Shown here: positions 23,985 to 29,463 of the stretch, one piece after another
Numbering within the stretch: the first letter of the stretch is position 1
How the letters are laid out: each line of letters begins with the position of its first letter
NCBI GenBank assembly: GCA_963833985.1
Contig: CAWIAD010000002.1
Span: forward strand, 2,560,001-2,624,000
Direction: 5' to 3'
DNA from: an uncultured Planctomycetaceae bacterium
GTDB taxonomy: Bacteria > Planctomycetota > Planctomycetia > Isosphaerales > Isosphaeraceae
DNA length: 64,000 bases
Made by a program: the position numbers and the translations under genes
Notes under the pieces: generated by a model
The model's input: the letters and a program-made list of their open reading frames with translations, nothing else
What the model was told of the DNA's origin: nothing
Database searches by the model: none

Positions 23985-24713
23985 TCAGAGCTGGCTGCTG
24001 TCCAGCGAATGGAGCCCGCATTCCGTCTTCGCCTGGCCCGCCCAGCGCCCGGCCCGCTCATCCTGGCCCTCGGCCACCGGCCGGGTGCACGGCCAGCAGC
24101 CGATCGAGGGATATCCCTGGTCGTGCAACGGGTTGTAGGGAACGCGGTTGGCCACGATGTAGGCCCACACGTCGCGACGCGTCCAGCTCAGGAGCGGGTT
24201 CACCTTCATGAGCCGGAACTTGGGGTCCCAGCCCACCACTTTCGCCTGCGCCCGATCGGTCGATTGTTCGGCCCGGATCGCCGTGATCCATGCATCATAT
24301 CCGACCAGGGCGCGGCGGAGCGGAACGATCTTGCGCTCGTAGCAGCACTGCTCGGAATTCGACACGTACAGCGGACCGCCGTGGATCCGCTCGTAATCCG
24401 CGACCGAGGTCTCCGGCCGCACCATTTCCACCTCGATGCCGTAGCGGTCGACGATCTGGTCCCGCAGCGCCAGGGTCTCGGCGAACTGATAGCCGGTATC
24501 CAGGTTGAAGACCCGGACGCGGGGCTCAACCTCCGCCAGAAGGTGAATCAGGATACAGCCTTCGGGCCCAAACGCCGTTGCCATCGTCAACCGCGGGAAG
24601 TAACGGTCGACGGCCCACTGGAGGATTTCGCTGGGCGTTGCGGAAGCCAGTTGTTCGTTGGCGTCCAGCAGCTCCTCCTCGGCCGGCATCACTTGAACCT
24701 CGGATTGGACCAT
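23985..24713 (-). CDS. cysH: APS/PAPS reductase
   Basis: LDTGYQF, CCYERK, YPSIGCWPC, ERAGRW and KTECGLH. Confidence 0.95.
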   Translation of the reverse strand: MVQSEVQVMPAEEELLDANEQLASATPSEILQWAVDRYFPRLTMATAFGPEGCILIHLLAEVEPRVRVFNLDTGYQFAETLALRDQIVDRYGIEVEMVRPETSVADYERIHGGPLYVSNSEQCCYERKIVPLRRALVGYDAWITAIRAEQSTDRAQAKVVGWDPKFRLMKVNPLLSWTRRDVWAYIVANRVPYNPLHDQGYPSIGCWPCTRPVAEGQDERAGRWAGQAKTECGLHSLDSSQL

Positions 24714-24743
24714 GTTCGCTCCTCCAGAACGGTTCAGTCGGGG

Positions 24744-24781
24744 GCAATGTTACGTTTGTTCGTAAGCAAAGTCAACATTGC
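24744..24781 (-). promoter_or_regulatory. Sigma-70-type promoter of cysH with an overlapping inverted repeat
   Basis: Minus strand reads TTGACT (24775-24770), 17 bp, TAACAT (24752-24747). The 8-bp IR GCAATGTT / AACATTGC overlaps both boxes. Confidence 0.6.
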
Positions 24782-25109
24782 GCCATTGACCGCCAGGCCG
24801 TTTGGTTTTCGGGCAGGGAACACAGAGCACCGAACTCGAAGGGGCAACTCGAAGCAACTCGAAGAACTGGCAACTCGAAGGCAACTCGAAGGGGCCGCCC
24901 ACAGTTCACAACTCGAAAGCAACACGAAGGCAACACGAAGGCGGCAACACGAAGGAACACGAAGGGGCCACCCACAGTACATCAAACGGCGAGCAGGGGC
25001 GCGAAGGGGCCACCCACGGAGGCGAGGAAGCACGAAGGGGCCACCCACCAAGCACGAAGGGGCCACGAAGGGGCCACCCACAGTTCAAGGCTCGAAGCAG
25101 GGAAGGCAC

Positions 25110-25420
25110 TAAGAGGGAGTTCGGAAACTTGGGTGGTCTGGACAGATTTTCTGAATTGAGCAGAATCTTCTCAGGGGAAGGGTAGTCATCGAACAAGGGC
25201 GGAGCCCGATCATGGAGCACGAAGGGGCCACCCACAGTCCATCCAACAGTGTGGGTGGCCCGACTGCACGGGTTTGTGGGTGGCCCGACTGCACGGGTTT
25301 GTGGGTGGCCCCAAGCATGGCCCGGGTTTCAGGGGCTCTTGAACGAGCAGATTGCGGATGAAGTCGGGCTCAACCGCCAGCAGGTCGGCGTGTGGCGGAA
25401 GCGGTGGCGAGATGCCGGAG
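25110..25420 (+). pseudogene. IS630-like remnant broken by motif clusters
   Basis: 25327-25417 encodes FQGLLNEQIADEVGLNRQQVGVWRKRWRDA, a transposase-type HTH. 25110-25214 is an AT-richer segment that begins TAAGAG and ends in an ATG, and may be the left end. Confidence 0.5.
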
Positions 25421-25711
25421 TCACGAAAGTCACGGGGGAACACGAAGGGAACACAAAGGGGCCACCCACAATTCAAGAGGCACGAAGGGGCCACCCACAG
25501 TGAAGGCGGCGTGGGGCCGTCCGTCGGAGTTCGGTGGCGGAGGTGGCGCCTGGAGGCACGAAGGAGGCACGAAGGGGCCACCCACAATTCAGAGGAGGCA
25601 CGAAGGGGCCACCCACAATTCAGAGGCACGAAGCACGAAGGGGAAGCACGAAGGGGCCGAAGCACGAAGGGGCCACCCACAATTCAAGAGGCACGAAGGG
25701 AGAGGCACGAA

Positions 25712-25958
25712 GGGGCCACCCACAGTGAGGGCGGCGTGGGGCCGTCCGTCGGAGTTCGGTGGCGGAGGTGGCGCCTGGCTTGTCGTCGTCGAGCCGCTCG
25801 GTGCTGAGCGCAGGTCGGGGAAAAAGGCAGGCCGCACGGTGCCTCACCGGATCAGAGGTTCACCAGACCGGCATCAGGTAGGCTCAGACGAGGATCCGAC
25901 GGAGCCATACTTCCACCAGCATGCCTGGCCGTAGATGCCCGGGTCCGTGGGTGGCCCC
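25712..25958. mobile_element. ~250-bp non-coding element with 12-bp terminal inverted repeats (copy 1)
   Basis: Bounded by GGGGCCACCCAC ... GTGGGTGGCCCC. Homologous to 27529-27778, and its first ~65 bp are duplicated at 25487-25553. Confidence 0.7.
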
Positions 25959-26048
25959 AATCATCGGTGGGTGGCCCCAATCATCGGGCTCCAAGGATCG
26001 TTTGTCGGGCTGACGCCCGAGGTTGGCAGTCACGAAGGGGCCACACAC

Positions 26049-27528
26049 GAATGCCGCGAAGTTAATTTTAACTAATTGTGCCATTTGATCTTGCGCCATG
26101 GGTGAGGCTCCGGGCATCCTGTGGGAAGTACCAGGACCCACAGTTGCTGGAGGGAGCCCCACCCATGCCGCCTCGCATCATCCCTATTCTCGATCGACTG
26201 CGCCAAGATATCGCCGCGGGATTGTCCCGGGAGACGATCGAAGAAGCCTGCCGCCAGGCGAAACACCGCTGGCGGAATCGCGTTCTCGACCCCGCGACGA
26301 CCATTTATCTGTTCCTTCTCCAGGTCCTTCATGGCAACACGGCCTGTCGCCACGTGGTGCACTTCGGCGCTTGGACCTTCACCGACAGCGCCTACTGCAT
26401 GGCGCGAAAGCGGCTTCCGCTGGCCGTCTTCGACTGGCTCGTGGAGCGGACCGCTGCCGCCGTGCGGACTGCTTCGGATGGCGCGCGGTGGCTCGGGCAC
26501 CGAATCTGGGTCGTCGACAGCTCCAGCTTCTCCATGCCGGACCAACCAGAACTGCAACGTCACTTCGGCCAACCCAGCGGTCAACGCAAGGGCTGTGGCT
26601 TCCCGGTGGCGAAATGGCTGGCCCTCTTCGACGTCACCACCGGCATGCTTCTGCGTTCGAGGACGGCCCCTTTGCGGACCCACGAGATGTCCCAGGTTGG
26701 CCCGATCTCCGACGGCCTGGAGCCGGGAGACATCGTGCTCGGTGACCGCGGATTTTGCTCGTATGCTCATCTGGCGATATTACTGCAACGCGGTCTGCAT
26801 GCGGTTTTCCGCGTGCACCAGCAGCAGATCGTCGATTTCACGCCGGGTCGTCCGATGGCCAGGAGGAAGGGTCCGTACCCCAGGCCGCAGGGTCTGCCGA
26901 GTTCGCGGTGGGTGTTGGCGCAGGGAACCGCAGATCAGATTGTCACATGGTTTAAATCGAAATCCCATCCGAAGTGGATGTCGACGGATGAGTTCGAGGT
27001 GCTGCCCTCCGAGATCACCGTGCGCGAGCTGAGGTACCGGGTCGAGACACCCGGGTATCGGGTGCGCGAAATCACGCTGGTCACGACTCTGTTAGACGCA
27101 TCGACCTACCCGGCGACAGAGCTGGCCGAACTCTACTACAAGAGGTGGAGAGTCGAACTCAATTTTCGTCATATAAAGATTAGCATGAAGATGGATGTTC
27201 TGCGTTGCGAGACAGTCGAAGGGGTTCTCAAAGAGCTGGCGATTTTCAGCCTGGCGTATAACCTGGTAAGATCGGTCATGCTGGAGTCGGCACGCATGCG
27301 CGGCGTTGATCCGGATCGGATCGGCTTGATCGACGCGGTGCGCTGGCTGATCGGGTCCGAAGGGGGTTCTGAGCCCGCGCGGATCGTCATCAACCCATTG
27401 CGCCGTGGACGCGTCGAGCCCCGAGTCGTAAAGCGACGACCAAAACAATACATGCGGATGACTAGGCCCAGATCCGAACTCCGCAAACAGTTGCCAATGA
27501 AGCACTTCTGACTAACTTTGTGGCATTC
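26049..27528 (+). mobile_element. Complete IS4-family insertion sequence
   Basis: IRL GAATGCCGCGAAGTTA and IRR (reverse complement) GAATGCCACAAAGTTA match at 14/16; 11-bp TSD GGGCCACACAC (26038-26048 and 27529-27539). Confidence 0.92.
26165..27511 (+). CDS. IS4-family transposase
   Basis: SAYCMARKRL, VVDSS, LGDRGF, YYKRWRVELNFRHIK (YREK signature) and EPRVVKRRPK. Confidence 0.95.
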   Translation: MPPRIIPILDRLRQDIAAGLSRETIEEACRQAKHRWRNRVLDPATTIYLFLLQVLHGNTACRHVVHFGAWTFTDSAYCMARKRLPLAVFDWLVERTAAAVRTASDGARWLGHRIWVVDSSSFSMPDQPELQRHFGQPSGQRKGCGFPVAKWLALFDVTTGMLLRSRTAPLRTHEMSQVGPISDGLEPGDIVLGDRGFCSYAHLAILLQRGLHAVFRVHQQQIVDFTPGRPMARRKGPYPRPQGLPSSRWVLAQGTADQIVTWFKSKSHPKWMSTDEFEVLPSEITVRELRYRVETPGYRVREITLVTTLLDASTYPATELAELYYKRWRVELNFRHIKISMKMDVLRCETVEGVLKELAIFSLAYNLVRSVMLESARMRGVDPDRIGLIDAVRWLIGSEGGSEPARIVINPLRRGRVEPRVVKRRPKQYMRMTRPRSELRKQLPMKHF

Positions 27529-27778
27529 GGGCCACACACAGTTCAGGGCGGCGTGAGAGCCGTCCGGTGGCGGACGTGAGCTGGGCTCGTTGTCGTCGAG
27601 CCGCTCGGTGCTGAGCGCAGGTCGGGGAGAAGAAGGCTGGCCCCACGGTGCCCCACCGGATCAGCGGAGACCAGACCGGGATCAGACAGGGGTCAGACGA
27701 GGATTGGACGAGGATCAGCTGGGACCATACTTCCACCAGCGTGGCTGGCGGTAGATGCCTGGGTCCGTGGGTGGGCCC
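27529..27778. mobile_element. ~250-bp non-coding element (copy 2, diverged; left end hit by IS4)
   Basis: Shares GTCGTCGAGCCGCTCGGTGCTGAGCGCAGGTCGGGGA, CACCGGATCAG, CCATACTTCCACCAGC and GTAGATGCC-GGGTCCGTGGGTGG with copy 1, in the same order. Confidence 0.7.
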
Positions 27779-27872
27779 GATTATCCCTCGATTATCCCAG
27801 GTAGAAGAGCATGGACGGATCGTCGAGCCGCTCGGCCAGGCTCGGACATGAAACGATCCTCGACGAGACCCC

Positions 27873-27901
27873 TTGCAAGCCGGGTCTGGATATGCCAGAA
27901 T
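27873..27901 (+). promoter_or_regulatory. Possible promoter of the TA operon (nearly leaderless transcript)
   Basis: TTGCAA, 17 bp, then CAGAAT preceded by TGn, ending 9 bp before ATG 27911; no SD. Confidence 0.35.
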
Positions 27902-27910
27902 TAGCCTAGA

Positions 27911-28315
27911 ATGGGCACCGGCGAATCCGAGGAATCAAAGCCGCTCTTCTGGATGGGCTCGAGCCGGAGTGACTTGCGAGAGTTCCCGGAGGAGGTCAGG
28001 CATTCGATGGGCTTTGCCCTCTGGCAGGCCCAGCTTGGCCGCAAGCACCGGGACGCGAAGGTCTTGAAGGGCTATCGCGGGGCGGGGGTCATCGAAGTGG
28101 TCGAGGACCACGATGGGAACACGTATCGAGCCGTCTACACGGTGAAGTTCGCCGCTGCGGTCTACGTGCTGCACGCCTTCCAGAAGAAGTCGAAGAAGGG
28201 CATCAAGACGCCCGTGGCCGAGATGAAGCTCATCCGCCAGCGGTTCAAGGCAGCAGAGGAACACCATGAGGAAAGAAGAGCGGAAGCAGAAAAGCGTGGA
28301 GCCGGTCCCCATTGA
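27911..28315 (+). CDS. Type II TA toxin, RelE/HigB-like (Gp49/DUF891 type)
   Basis: KPLFWMGSS..DLREFP, GFALWQAQLG, TYRAVYTVKF and VYVLHAFQKKSKKGIKTP. Confidence 0.9.
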   Translation: MGTGESEESKPLFWMGSSRSDLREFPEEVRHSMGFALWQAQLGRKHRDAKVLKGYRGAGVIEVVEDHDGNTYRAVYTVKFAAAVYVLHAFQKKSKKGIKTPVAEMKLIRQRFKAAEEHHEERRAEAEKRGAGPH

Positions 28316-28613
28316 GCCGTCGAGCGGGAACGTGTTCGCCGACCTCGGGCTCGACAATCCGCAAGAGCTGCTCGCCAAGGCCGAGCTGGTGCAGCGCATC
28401 GCCGAAATCATCGCCGAGCGGAAACTCACGCAAGTTCGAGCCGCGAAGCTCCTGGGAGTCGACCAACCGAAGGTGTCGGCGCTCCTGCGGGGCAAGCTCG
28501 ATGGGTTCTCCACCGACCGTCTGTTCCGGTTCTTGAACGCCCTGGGCCGTGATGTCGAGATCGTGATCCGGCCGGCGAAACCCTCACAGGAAGCGGAAAC
28601 CCGCGTGGTCTGA
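28266..28613 (+). CDS. XRE-family HTH antitoxin (HigA-like)
   Basis: SSGNVFADLG, LTQVRAAKLLGVDQPKVSAL and FSTDRLFRFL; overlaps the toxin, toxin-first order. Confidence 0.9.
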   Translation: MRKEERKQKSVEPVPIEPSSGNVFADLGLDNPQELLAKAELVQRIAEIIAERKLTQVRAAKLLGVDQPKVSALLRGKLDGFSTDRLFRFLNALGRDVEIVIRPAKPSQEAETRVV

Positions 28614-28803
28614 CCCTGGAGCCTGGCCCGAAGCAAGCCGTTTGAGGACGGGTCGCATCCCACGATCCCATCTGCCGGCATGCCTCACGACCTCCCCACA
28701 GGCAGCCCGAAGGGGCCACCCACAGTTGAGGGCGCGTGCGGCAATCCATGCCGGTGGCGACGATACAGATTCCAGAGGGTCAGGGCCTGCGGCGGGCGCG
28801 GAC

Positions 28804-29463
28804 TCACGGGGCGAGCCAGGCCGGCGTGCGCTGCTCGTGGTTGGTGATGGCAGCATCGAGCAGCAGGGTTTCGGCGATGGCATCCAGGCCGTTGATGAGG
28901 CGGTGGCGCTGGGCCTCGGGAACGTCGATGGGGTAGACGGCGTCGGCCTGGCCGGGCCGGTGCAGCGTGAGCGTCTGGGAAGGCAGATCGATGGTGGCCT
29001 CGGCGCCGCCGGGTTCCATGCCGGCCGCGGCGATCGCGCGCCATTGCGTCTCGGGAAGCTCCAGCGGGAGCAGGCCGTTGTTGTAGGCGTTGCCCTCGAA
29101 GATATCGGCGAATCCCTCGCCCTTGCCGGGTGCGATCACGGCGCGGAAGCCGGCCTGGGCGATGGCCCAGACGGCGTGCTCGCGGCTAGATCCGCAGCCG
29201 AAGTTACGGCCCGCCACAAGGATGCTCGCGTCGGCGAAGCCGTTTCGGTTCAAGGGGAAATCGGCCTCCAGGGGGCCGTGTGCATCGGGATCGTCGACGG
29301 GTGGGGAAGTTCCCGGAGCGTAGCGGCGGTCGGCGAAGAGCAGGGGGCCGTATCCGGTGCGTTCAATCCGCTTGAGATACCGGGCCGGGATGATCAGGTC
29401 GGTATTCACGTCGGTCCATTCGAGGACGGCAATCCGGCCGCGGTGCGTGACAAACGGATCCAC
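28804..29463 (-). CDS. leuD: 3-isopropylmalate dehydratase small subunit
   Basis: VNTDLIIPARYLK, NFGCGSSREHA, FADIF..N..NNGLLP. Confidence 0.95.
   Translation of the reverse strand: MDPFVTHRGRIAVLEWTDVNTDLIIPARYLKRIERTGYGPLLFADRRYAPGTSPPVDDPDAHGPLEADFPLNRNGFADASILVAGRNFGCGSSREHAVWAIAQAGFRAVIAPGKGEGFADIFEGNAYNNGLLPLELPETQWRAIAAAGMEPGGAEATIDLPSQTLTLHRPGQADAVYPIDVPEAQRHRLINGLDAIAETLLLDAAITNHEQRTPAWLAP

Follow-up and report, generated by a model that had tools for sequence, protein, structure and literature searches.

Stacked partial copies of an end motif in a planctomycete genome, likely made in trans by a subclass 2.3 RAYT-like enzyme

Irregular repeats in a planctomycete genome (10.16 Mb in two contigs, with DUF1559 proteins and closest homologues in Isosphaeraceae) are stacked partial copies of an end motif, likely made in trans by an enzyme of TnpA-Y1 subclass 2.3 through nicking, copying, and resealing. 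In the window, the 64,000-nucleotide stretch analyzed here, GGGGCCACCCAC occurs 20 times at no more than one mismatch, always within 24891-28723, against 1.24 +/- 1.33 in shuffled sequence. The genes that it accompanies identify it as the motif at the ends of a subclass 2.3 (RAYT-like HUH) element. The observations behind this reading are the link between motif and gene, the polarity of the units, a narrow band of start positions, the same register at junctions with foreign DNA, and no target duplications.

Arrays in the window

The region is a mosaic of two ~250-bp gene-less elements, a hairpin dimer, IS5-type and helix-turn-helix (HTH) fragments, and an IS4 insertion, as follows.

24833..25100, plus strand: array A, 15 restart units, of which four are exact full copies, one is a copy with a mismatch, and the others are truncated
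25112..25216, plus strand: left-end fragment of an IS5-type multi-copy element, broken off at the start of a Y1 end
25217..25262, plus strand: mini-dimer (motif, 15-nt spacer, inverted motif), a 39-nt hairpin dimer (z -4.25)
25250..25320, minus strand: reverse array, a 25-nt unit x2.5, outermost copy with a different flank
25323..25416, plus strand: HTH gene fragment of ~95 nt between Y1 ends (HTH_23, E 2e-5)
25420..25723, plus strand: array B, 13 restart units, the longest reaching 67 nt into the miniature element
25712..25958, plus strand: miniature element 1, non-coding, 247 bp, between two inward-facing motifs, without an Rfam match
25947..25987, minus strand: right end of miniature element 1, with one 20-nt restart
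26030..26048, plus strand: left end of miniature element 2, interrupted by IS4
26049..27528, plus strand: IS4-family element (DDE transposase ORF 26078-27511) inside a motif, with an 11-bp target duplication
27529..27798, plus strand: remainder of miniature element 2, 78% like element 1, with a right-end 11-nt restart at 27778-27798
28705..28723, plus strand: single end motif without stutter, located downstream of a RelE/Gp49-HTH gene pair

An earlier note on this DNA had described a polarized pattern of truncation and restart, and the arrays confirm it. Split at their upstream bases, the 15 units in 24833-25100 and the 13 in 25420-25723 are fronted by AACTCGAA, AACACGAA, or GAGGCACGAA-type bases and run inward for variable lengths, from 1 nt, through the whole motif, to 67 nt. 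The long unit reported at 25487-25553 is present, matching 25712-25778 across 67 nt with one mismatch rather than the 65 claimed. The mirror pattern claimed for reverse ends was also found: 25947-25987 contains two copies of a 20-nt unit, 25250-25311 contains 2.5 copies of a 25-nt unit, and an 11-nt unit lies at 27778-27798. A further claim, that the duplicated flank differs from cluster to cluster, stood only in part. Each array repeats its own flank, but plus-strand ends in the window are preceded by CACGAA/CGAA-like stretches of 6-7 nt, as are related ends elsewhere in the genome, so part of this "flank" moves with the end.

The arrays are nested, with later units carrying the tail of the immediately preceding unit (24841-24891), and array A has no partner end directly after it. 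The reverse array at 25250..25320 appears to join two different ends, since its outermost copy has another flank. Single ends, unlike the dimer, fold no better than shuffled sequences (z -0.27 to -1.48). Rfam gave no match in 24600-28900. The HTH fragment, which we take to be IS630-like, has homologues on soil contigs that continue differently past both of its edges.

The IS4 element was considered as the cause of the stutters and rejected: it was inserted into a motif and is thus a passenger, and duplications are not enriched at the ends of multi-copy elements taken together. CRISPR was rejected by inspection, unique spacers being absent. The IS4 family (the window copy at 26049-27528 and 10 other G000 copies) appears to target Y1-type end motifs; judged by eye and without a chance control, 10 of the 11 sites are of the GGGG(A/T/C)N(A/G) type and the last is TGGGACA, with 11-bp duplications. 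Between the Y1 ends at 27778 and 28712, the window also holds a toxin-antitoxin-like pair, RelE/Gp49-like plus HTH_37 (27911-28613).

Linkage of the motif to a Y1 gene

The motif also accompanies a gene outside the window. An intact 455-aa ORF at C2:551448 is framed by stuttered inward-facing motifs, and a frameshifted copy of the gene at C2:2519136 is framed in the same way. Within the window no Y1 gene was found, as the earlier note had stated for HUH enzymes. The 455-aa protein matched the RAYT model NF047646 with an E value of 4e-10, under the model cut-off, and the Pfam model Y1_Tnp missed this cognate gene (E 0.0065).

Its residues N71-H72-L-H74, W195-E196, Y216-VDLNP, and T236-S237 correspond to the HuH, WE, YVDLNP, and TS tail motifs given for subclass 2.3 in the accessible text of Quentin et al. 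2018 (PMC6006769), with NHLH in place of the table consensus NHYH. The protein also has the long C-terminal region and the core insertions of that subclass (10 aa and ~55 aa), the latter defined relative to the subclass 2.1-like L002 protein by alignment and not by the authors' profiles. Several diverged copies occur in one genome, again as that text describes for subclass 2.3. The predicted structure was of low confidence (pLDDT 50.8), and PDB sequence searches returned only a marginal match to an IS200-type transposase (2xo6, E 0.98).

The association extends to homologues. From the best 80 of the 103 found, 79 loci were assembled and scored with the pattern G[GT]G[CT]CA[CT]CCA[CT], which was written after viewing 19 of the loci. 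In this set, the pattern lies 64-145 nt upstream of the gene at 63 of 73 scorable loci, compared with 1/73 in the wrong orientation and 1/63 in control windows, and it recurs inverted downstream at 24 of 52 loci. The trans-acting HUH (RAYT-type) nuclease proposed in the earlier note is thus borne out by association.

Which enzyme acts on the window is uncertain, because the window ends have diverged from those of the intact element (no BLAST match of at least 35 nt) and their nearest kin adjoin fragments of a second subclass 2.3 family, of ~350 aa.

At most homologue loci in the series L019-L095, a TTGAC -35-like hexamer lies 3-7 nt after the upstream motif; with this placement, the enzyme may shut down its own promoter when bound at the end.

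Distribution of the motif

Genome-wide, 54 exact motif copies fall in 23 clusters, many of them stuttered and with differing outer bases. The exact 12-mer is present in 12 of 13 same-genus relatives, six of which hold 11-84 copies, and the other 27 genomes hold 0-3 copies, near the control level. One genome, 70% complete (G009), has 12 motif copies and no match to the 455-aa protein. A tandem motif pair was found in only 4 of 150 phylum genomes besides the source genome, so heavy stuttering is patchy. Two genomes with such pairs (G173 and G152) encode the Y1 family, and three other genomes tested do not. A metagenome scan for CACGAAGGGGCCACCCACA gave three single matches, without stutter or Y1 gene and apparently due to chance. 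In two of the four gammaproteobacterial records viewed, a related GACA(C/G)-type motif has a duplication immediately outside it, as judged by eye.

This distribution bears on whether the stutters could arise from sequencing or assembly. The two-contig assembly is probably long-read, and four soil read runs hold only 6-12% of the window's words, leaving the arrays and the ends of the intact element uncovered. An artifact is nevertheless extremely improbable, as stutter occurs at 4/26 motifs on contigs named k127/k141/k147/NODE (presumably from short-read assemblers), at 2/16 motifs in isolate genomes, in G004, G002, and G173, and upstream of homologues in two complete gammaproteobacterial records. 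Within the source assembly itself, the ends of 172 other multi-copy elements are not enriched, with duplications at 8 of 344 (22-nt window), about the background.

Several individual sites merit mention. In an Aeromonas record (L277:930-1130), sequence resembling part of the element's own gene lies before the upstream end; it may be a very long truncated unit after which a restart occurred. A 24-kb stretch at G000:C2:488000-512000, in which 20 motif copies are interspersed among fragments of Y1 genes, is apparently a rearrangement hotspot. REPIN-like 43-bp dimers, consisting of a motif, a 19-nt spacer with a small internal palindrome, and an inverted motif, lie at G000:C2:490540, 492056, and 1452757, and G011 has several pairs 31 nt apart.

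Start and end positions of the units

Seeded parsing yielded 195 distinct junctions, of which 136 were clean (gap of -5 to +3); the 59 dropped had mostly longer gaps and otherwise long overlaps inside perfect repeats. Starts of the clean units were confined to a band from -6 to -13 (median -9, SD 1.9), whereas ends spanned 0 to +45 (SD 8.5), with a concentration at 0 to +5 and +2 the commonest value. About three quarters ended no more than 7 nt from the motif edge, and 24% ran farther inward with the start unchanged. Outward extension by more than 7 nt past the seed occurred at 1 of 136.

The seed pushes starts to -6 or farther out, which is why a seed-free test matters. Using only the innermost motif copies, we recorded the position where an adjacent tandem duplication begins. 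Starts at -13..-6 were found for 16/76 copies in the source genome, 18/103 in relatives, and 12/74 at homologue loci, totals that include chance matches of the relaxed pattern, with three records in both outside sets. No set had a start at -5..+2, and starts at +3..+34 numbered three, three, and zero, respectively; random positions gave 24/3000. Polarity and start offsets, raised in the earlier note for this locus, therefore hold genome-wide and in relatives. Its proposal of re-initiation at a fixed site agrees with the narrow register of starts, but that register is a band and not one site.

The same band recurs where ends meet other DNA. Y1 ends in the source genome are also located at breaks in other mobile DNA, and ends abutting DNA that is intact elsewhere in the genome have the break mostly at -5 to -14 among alignments reaching the motif neighborhood. 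This survey drew on the 28 of 131 ends with any match, several of which were other Y1 ends or distant breaks and one an IS at the motif edge. For example, the IS5-type fragment in the window, whose element carries DUF4096 in its intact ORF, breaks off 7 nt ahead of the motif, or 9 nt if microhomology is counted, a break at -7 for the end at 25224, and all 8 intact copies continue differently there. Near-identical ends at distant loci often have 8-11 outer bases in common. The outer 6-11 nt move with the end. Target duplications of the kind expected of a DDE-type IS or MITE (at least 8 nt in common at paired ends) were seen in 0/26 cases, and empty sites could be reconstructed for 0/13 units.

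Shared register and shared outer bases would also be expected if units were re-inserted, that is, if tyrosine-linked strands peeled from ends joined a 3'-OH near other ends in a self-targeted, one-ended transposition. The hybrid array with two different flanks (25250-25320) agrees with such an origin. Nested capture of the preceding unit's tail (24841-24891) and repetition of each array's own flank instead fit local copying, and we regard re-insertion as quite unlikely.

Clean periods are mostly 9-14 nt with a peak at 11-12 nt, lengths that would also result if the same enzyme made a staggered double nick (at about -9 and +2) whose overhangs were filled and rejoined, giving a target-duplication-like copy without an insertion. 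The commonest end at +2 fits this alternative, which explains the three quarters of units ending near the motif edge equally well. In addition, the genome has two Ku genes, and single extra bases at junctions are A in 11/20 cases against 5.8 expected, as in polymerase run-off at a template end, although this expectation comes from genome composition and the flanks are A-rich. Staggered nicking seems unlikely, given that 24% of clean units continue inward for over 7 nt, to as far as +45, from the same start, and that paired ends lack target duplications.

Microhomology was absent at 40 junctions, which argues against ordinary slippage, and 1-3 extra bases were present at 40. At exact junctions, the base after the presumed nick was A in 18 of 39 (p 0.12), and no strict dinucleotide was found at starts or long ends. 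The end peak at the motif edge and the period peak of 11-12 nt could reflect a host polymerase that stalls at a motif-bound protein and slips back by about one helical turn, the Y1 protein being a roadblock only. Such slippage would fix the end of each unit, whereas the start is the fixed side here; it leaves foreign junctions in the same register unexplained, and microhomology is not needed at the 40 exact junctions. We consider it very unlikely.

Proposed mechanism

Units that keep their outer boundary and vary at the inner one fit nicking of the GGGGCC strand ~9 nt outside the motif, followed by inward extension. The GGGGCC strand is the expected one because a nick on the other strand would copy the flank outward, a pattern that is absent. 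HUH enzymes hold the 5' side of a nick as a 5'-phosphotyrosine and free the 3'-OH (Ton-Hoang et al. 2012, PMC3333891, accessible text). In the likely nick-copy-reseal route, the subclass 2.3 enzyme would cut the GGGGCC-bearing strand at 6-13 nt outside the motif and free a 3'-OH, from which host polymerase would copy inward while displacing the strand ahead; the new end would then be sealed to the old strand still linked to the tyrosine. One copy would be gained per round, with its start set by the nick and its end by where synthesis stopped. Stops would fall mostly within 5 nt of the motif edge, perhaps where bound enzyme acts as a block, and sometimes tens of bases farther. Joining of the tyrosine-linked end to a 3'-OH elsewhere would move the end and its 6-11 outer bases to a new place. 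We infer the nick and its strand, the polymerase step, the resealing, and which of the Y1 genes in the genome acted on the window.

Against this route, characterized Y1 enzymes act on single-stranded hairpin substrates and cleave at fixed dinucleotides, and the stutter junctions here show no strict nick dinucleotide. Biochemistry on subclass 2.3 was not found in the literature searched, nor was a description of substrate or mechanism for subclasses 2.1 and 2.3. A more general idea, offered tentatively as something possible that falls short of probable, is that TIR-type Y1 enzymes (2.1 and 2.3) would be motif-anchored nickases that cut at a measured distance and not at a guide-selected dinucleotide. 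Their elements would be moved by a nick-primed replicative route undescribed for any IS family, and stutters would be an in vivo log of aborted rounds. If so, stutters would reveal cut site, strand, and run length ahead of biochemistry.

Relation to described systems

The earlier note had recognized no described system that leaves this scar. The enzyme class and the framing of Y1 genes by terminal inverted repeats are already known (TIRYT, subclasses 2.1 and 2.3; PMC6006769; PMC3733652, as far as accessible), and it is for the scar itself that no description was found. In the open text searched, neither a subclass 2.3 end motif nor a polarized stutter was found; the motif may be listed in ISfinder, in subscription papers, or among the figures and supplementary files of PMC6006769 and PMC3733652. 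The accessible part of PMC6006769 reports no identifiable REP-like flanking structures for subclass 2.3 and gives, for the two common subclasses 2.1 and 2.3, species shares of 14.9% and 2.9%, respectively. Unlike in that description, the elements here have a short non-hairpin end motif, occur in planctomycetes, and show polarized stutters and gene-less miniature derivatives.

TIRYT/TIRtron elements (Di Nocera et al. 2013, PMC3733652, accessible text), which mostly equal subclass 2.1 (PMC6006769, accessible text), share with the present ones a Y1 gene between inverted repeats and the occurrence of repeats as singles, dimers, and clusters. GGGGCCAC resembles the TIRtron consensus GGGGWSAS, itself held by most but not all TIRs; both GGGGCCAC and NGTGCCAY differ from it at the W position, C in GGGGCCAC, and the motif here is only ~12 nt. 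Truncated, polarized copies of ends, as seen here, go unmentioned in the accessible text of PMC3733652.

Nicking and priming by host polymerase from a 3'-OH, with attack on the first tyrosine-linked 5' end adding a unit, are also steps of the model proposed for TnpA-REP amplification of BIMEs (Ton-Hoang et al. 2012, PMC3333891, Fig. 7B; PMC8266576; accessible portions). A REP hairpin with GTAG, cleavage at C|T, and a second cut are all required in that model, which adds whole units (PMC3333891). In contrast, the present ends lack a GTAG hairpin, neither boundary has a fixed dinucleotide, and the point of truncation varies from unit to unit. The palindromic hairpin with 5' GTAG of REP/REPtron systems (subclasses 2.2 and 2.5) is likewise absent, with no GTAG at the motif, and CT stands at 0/39 exact start junctions, an indirect read-out of C|T cleavage as CT is rare in the flanks. 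If the preferred reading holds, the stutters give genomic support for nick-prime-rejoin amplification, hitherto only proposed for REP/BIME arrays.

IS91-type rolling-circle or one-ended transposition involves an HUH Y2 enzyme, nick-primed strand displacement, no target duplication, and one end more constant than the other, with dissimilar ori and ter ends. The elements here have a Y1 enzyme instead, and their two ends carry one motif in inverted orientation.

For subclass 2.3, the present data supply an end motif, predict where and on which strand the nick falls, and offer a ready assay. A nickase-ligase with a 12-nt binding motif and a cut ~9 nt away could also serve as a tool.

Stutter in additional Y1 families

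The source genome has two further Y1 families with different motifs, and these stutter likewise. In the ~350-aa subclass 2.3-like family, a motif lies upstream of 14/17 gene starts, and 12/25 innermost motifs are duplicated from -13..-4. In the subclass 2.1-like family, 9/10 innermost motifs are duplicated in the start band.

At gene starts of the ~350-aa family (G000:C2:1522218 and about 16 others), GGACA[TG]GCAA stands 73 nt upstream and is heavily stuttered. Hairpin repeats downstream of these genes are unrelated to it, which suggests that the family moves by one end. The subclass 2.1-like (TIRYT) genes have very long polarized stutters of up to 22 units at both ends (L002:980-1440 and 2170-2620; L004:1180-1440 and 2170-2640). 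Four more Y1 genes of the same genome (L001, L005, L006, and L007) are accompanied by conventional hairpin REP arrays, of the GTAG type and others.
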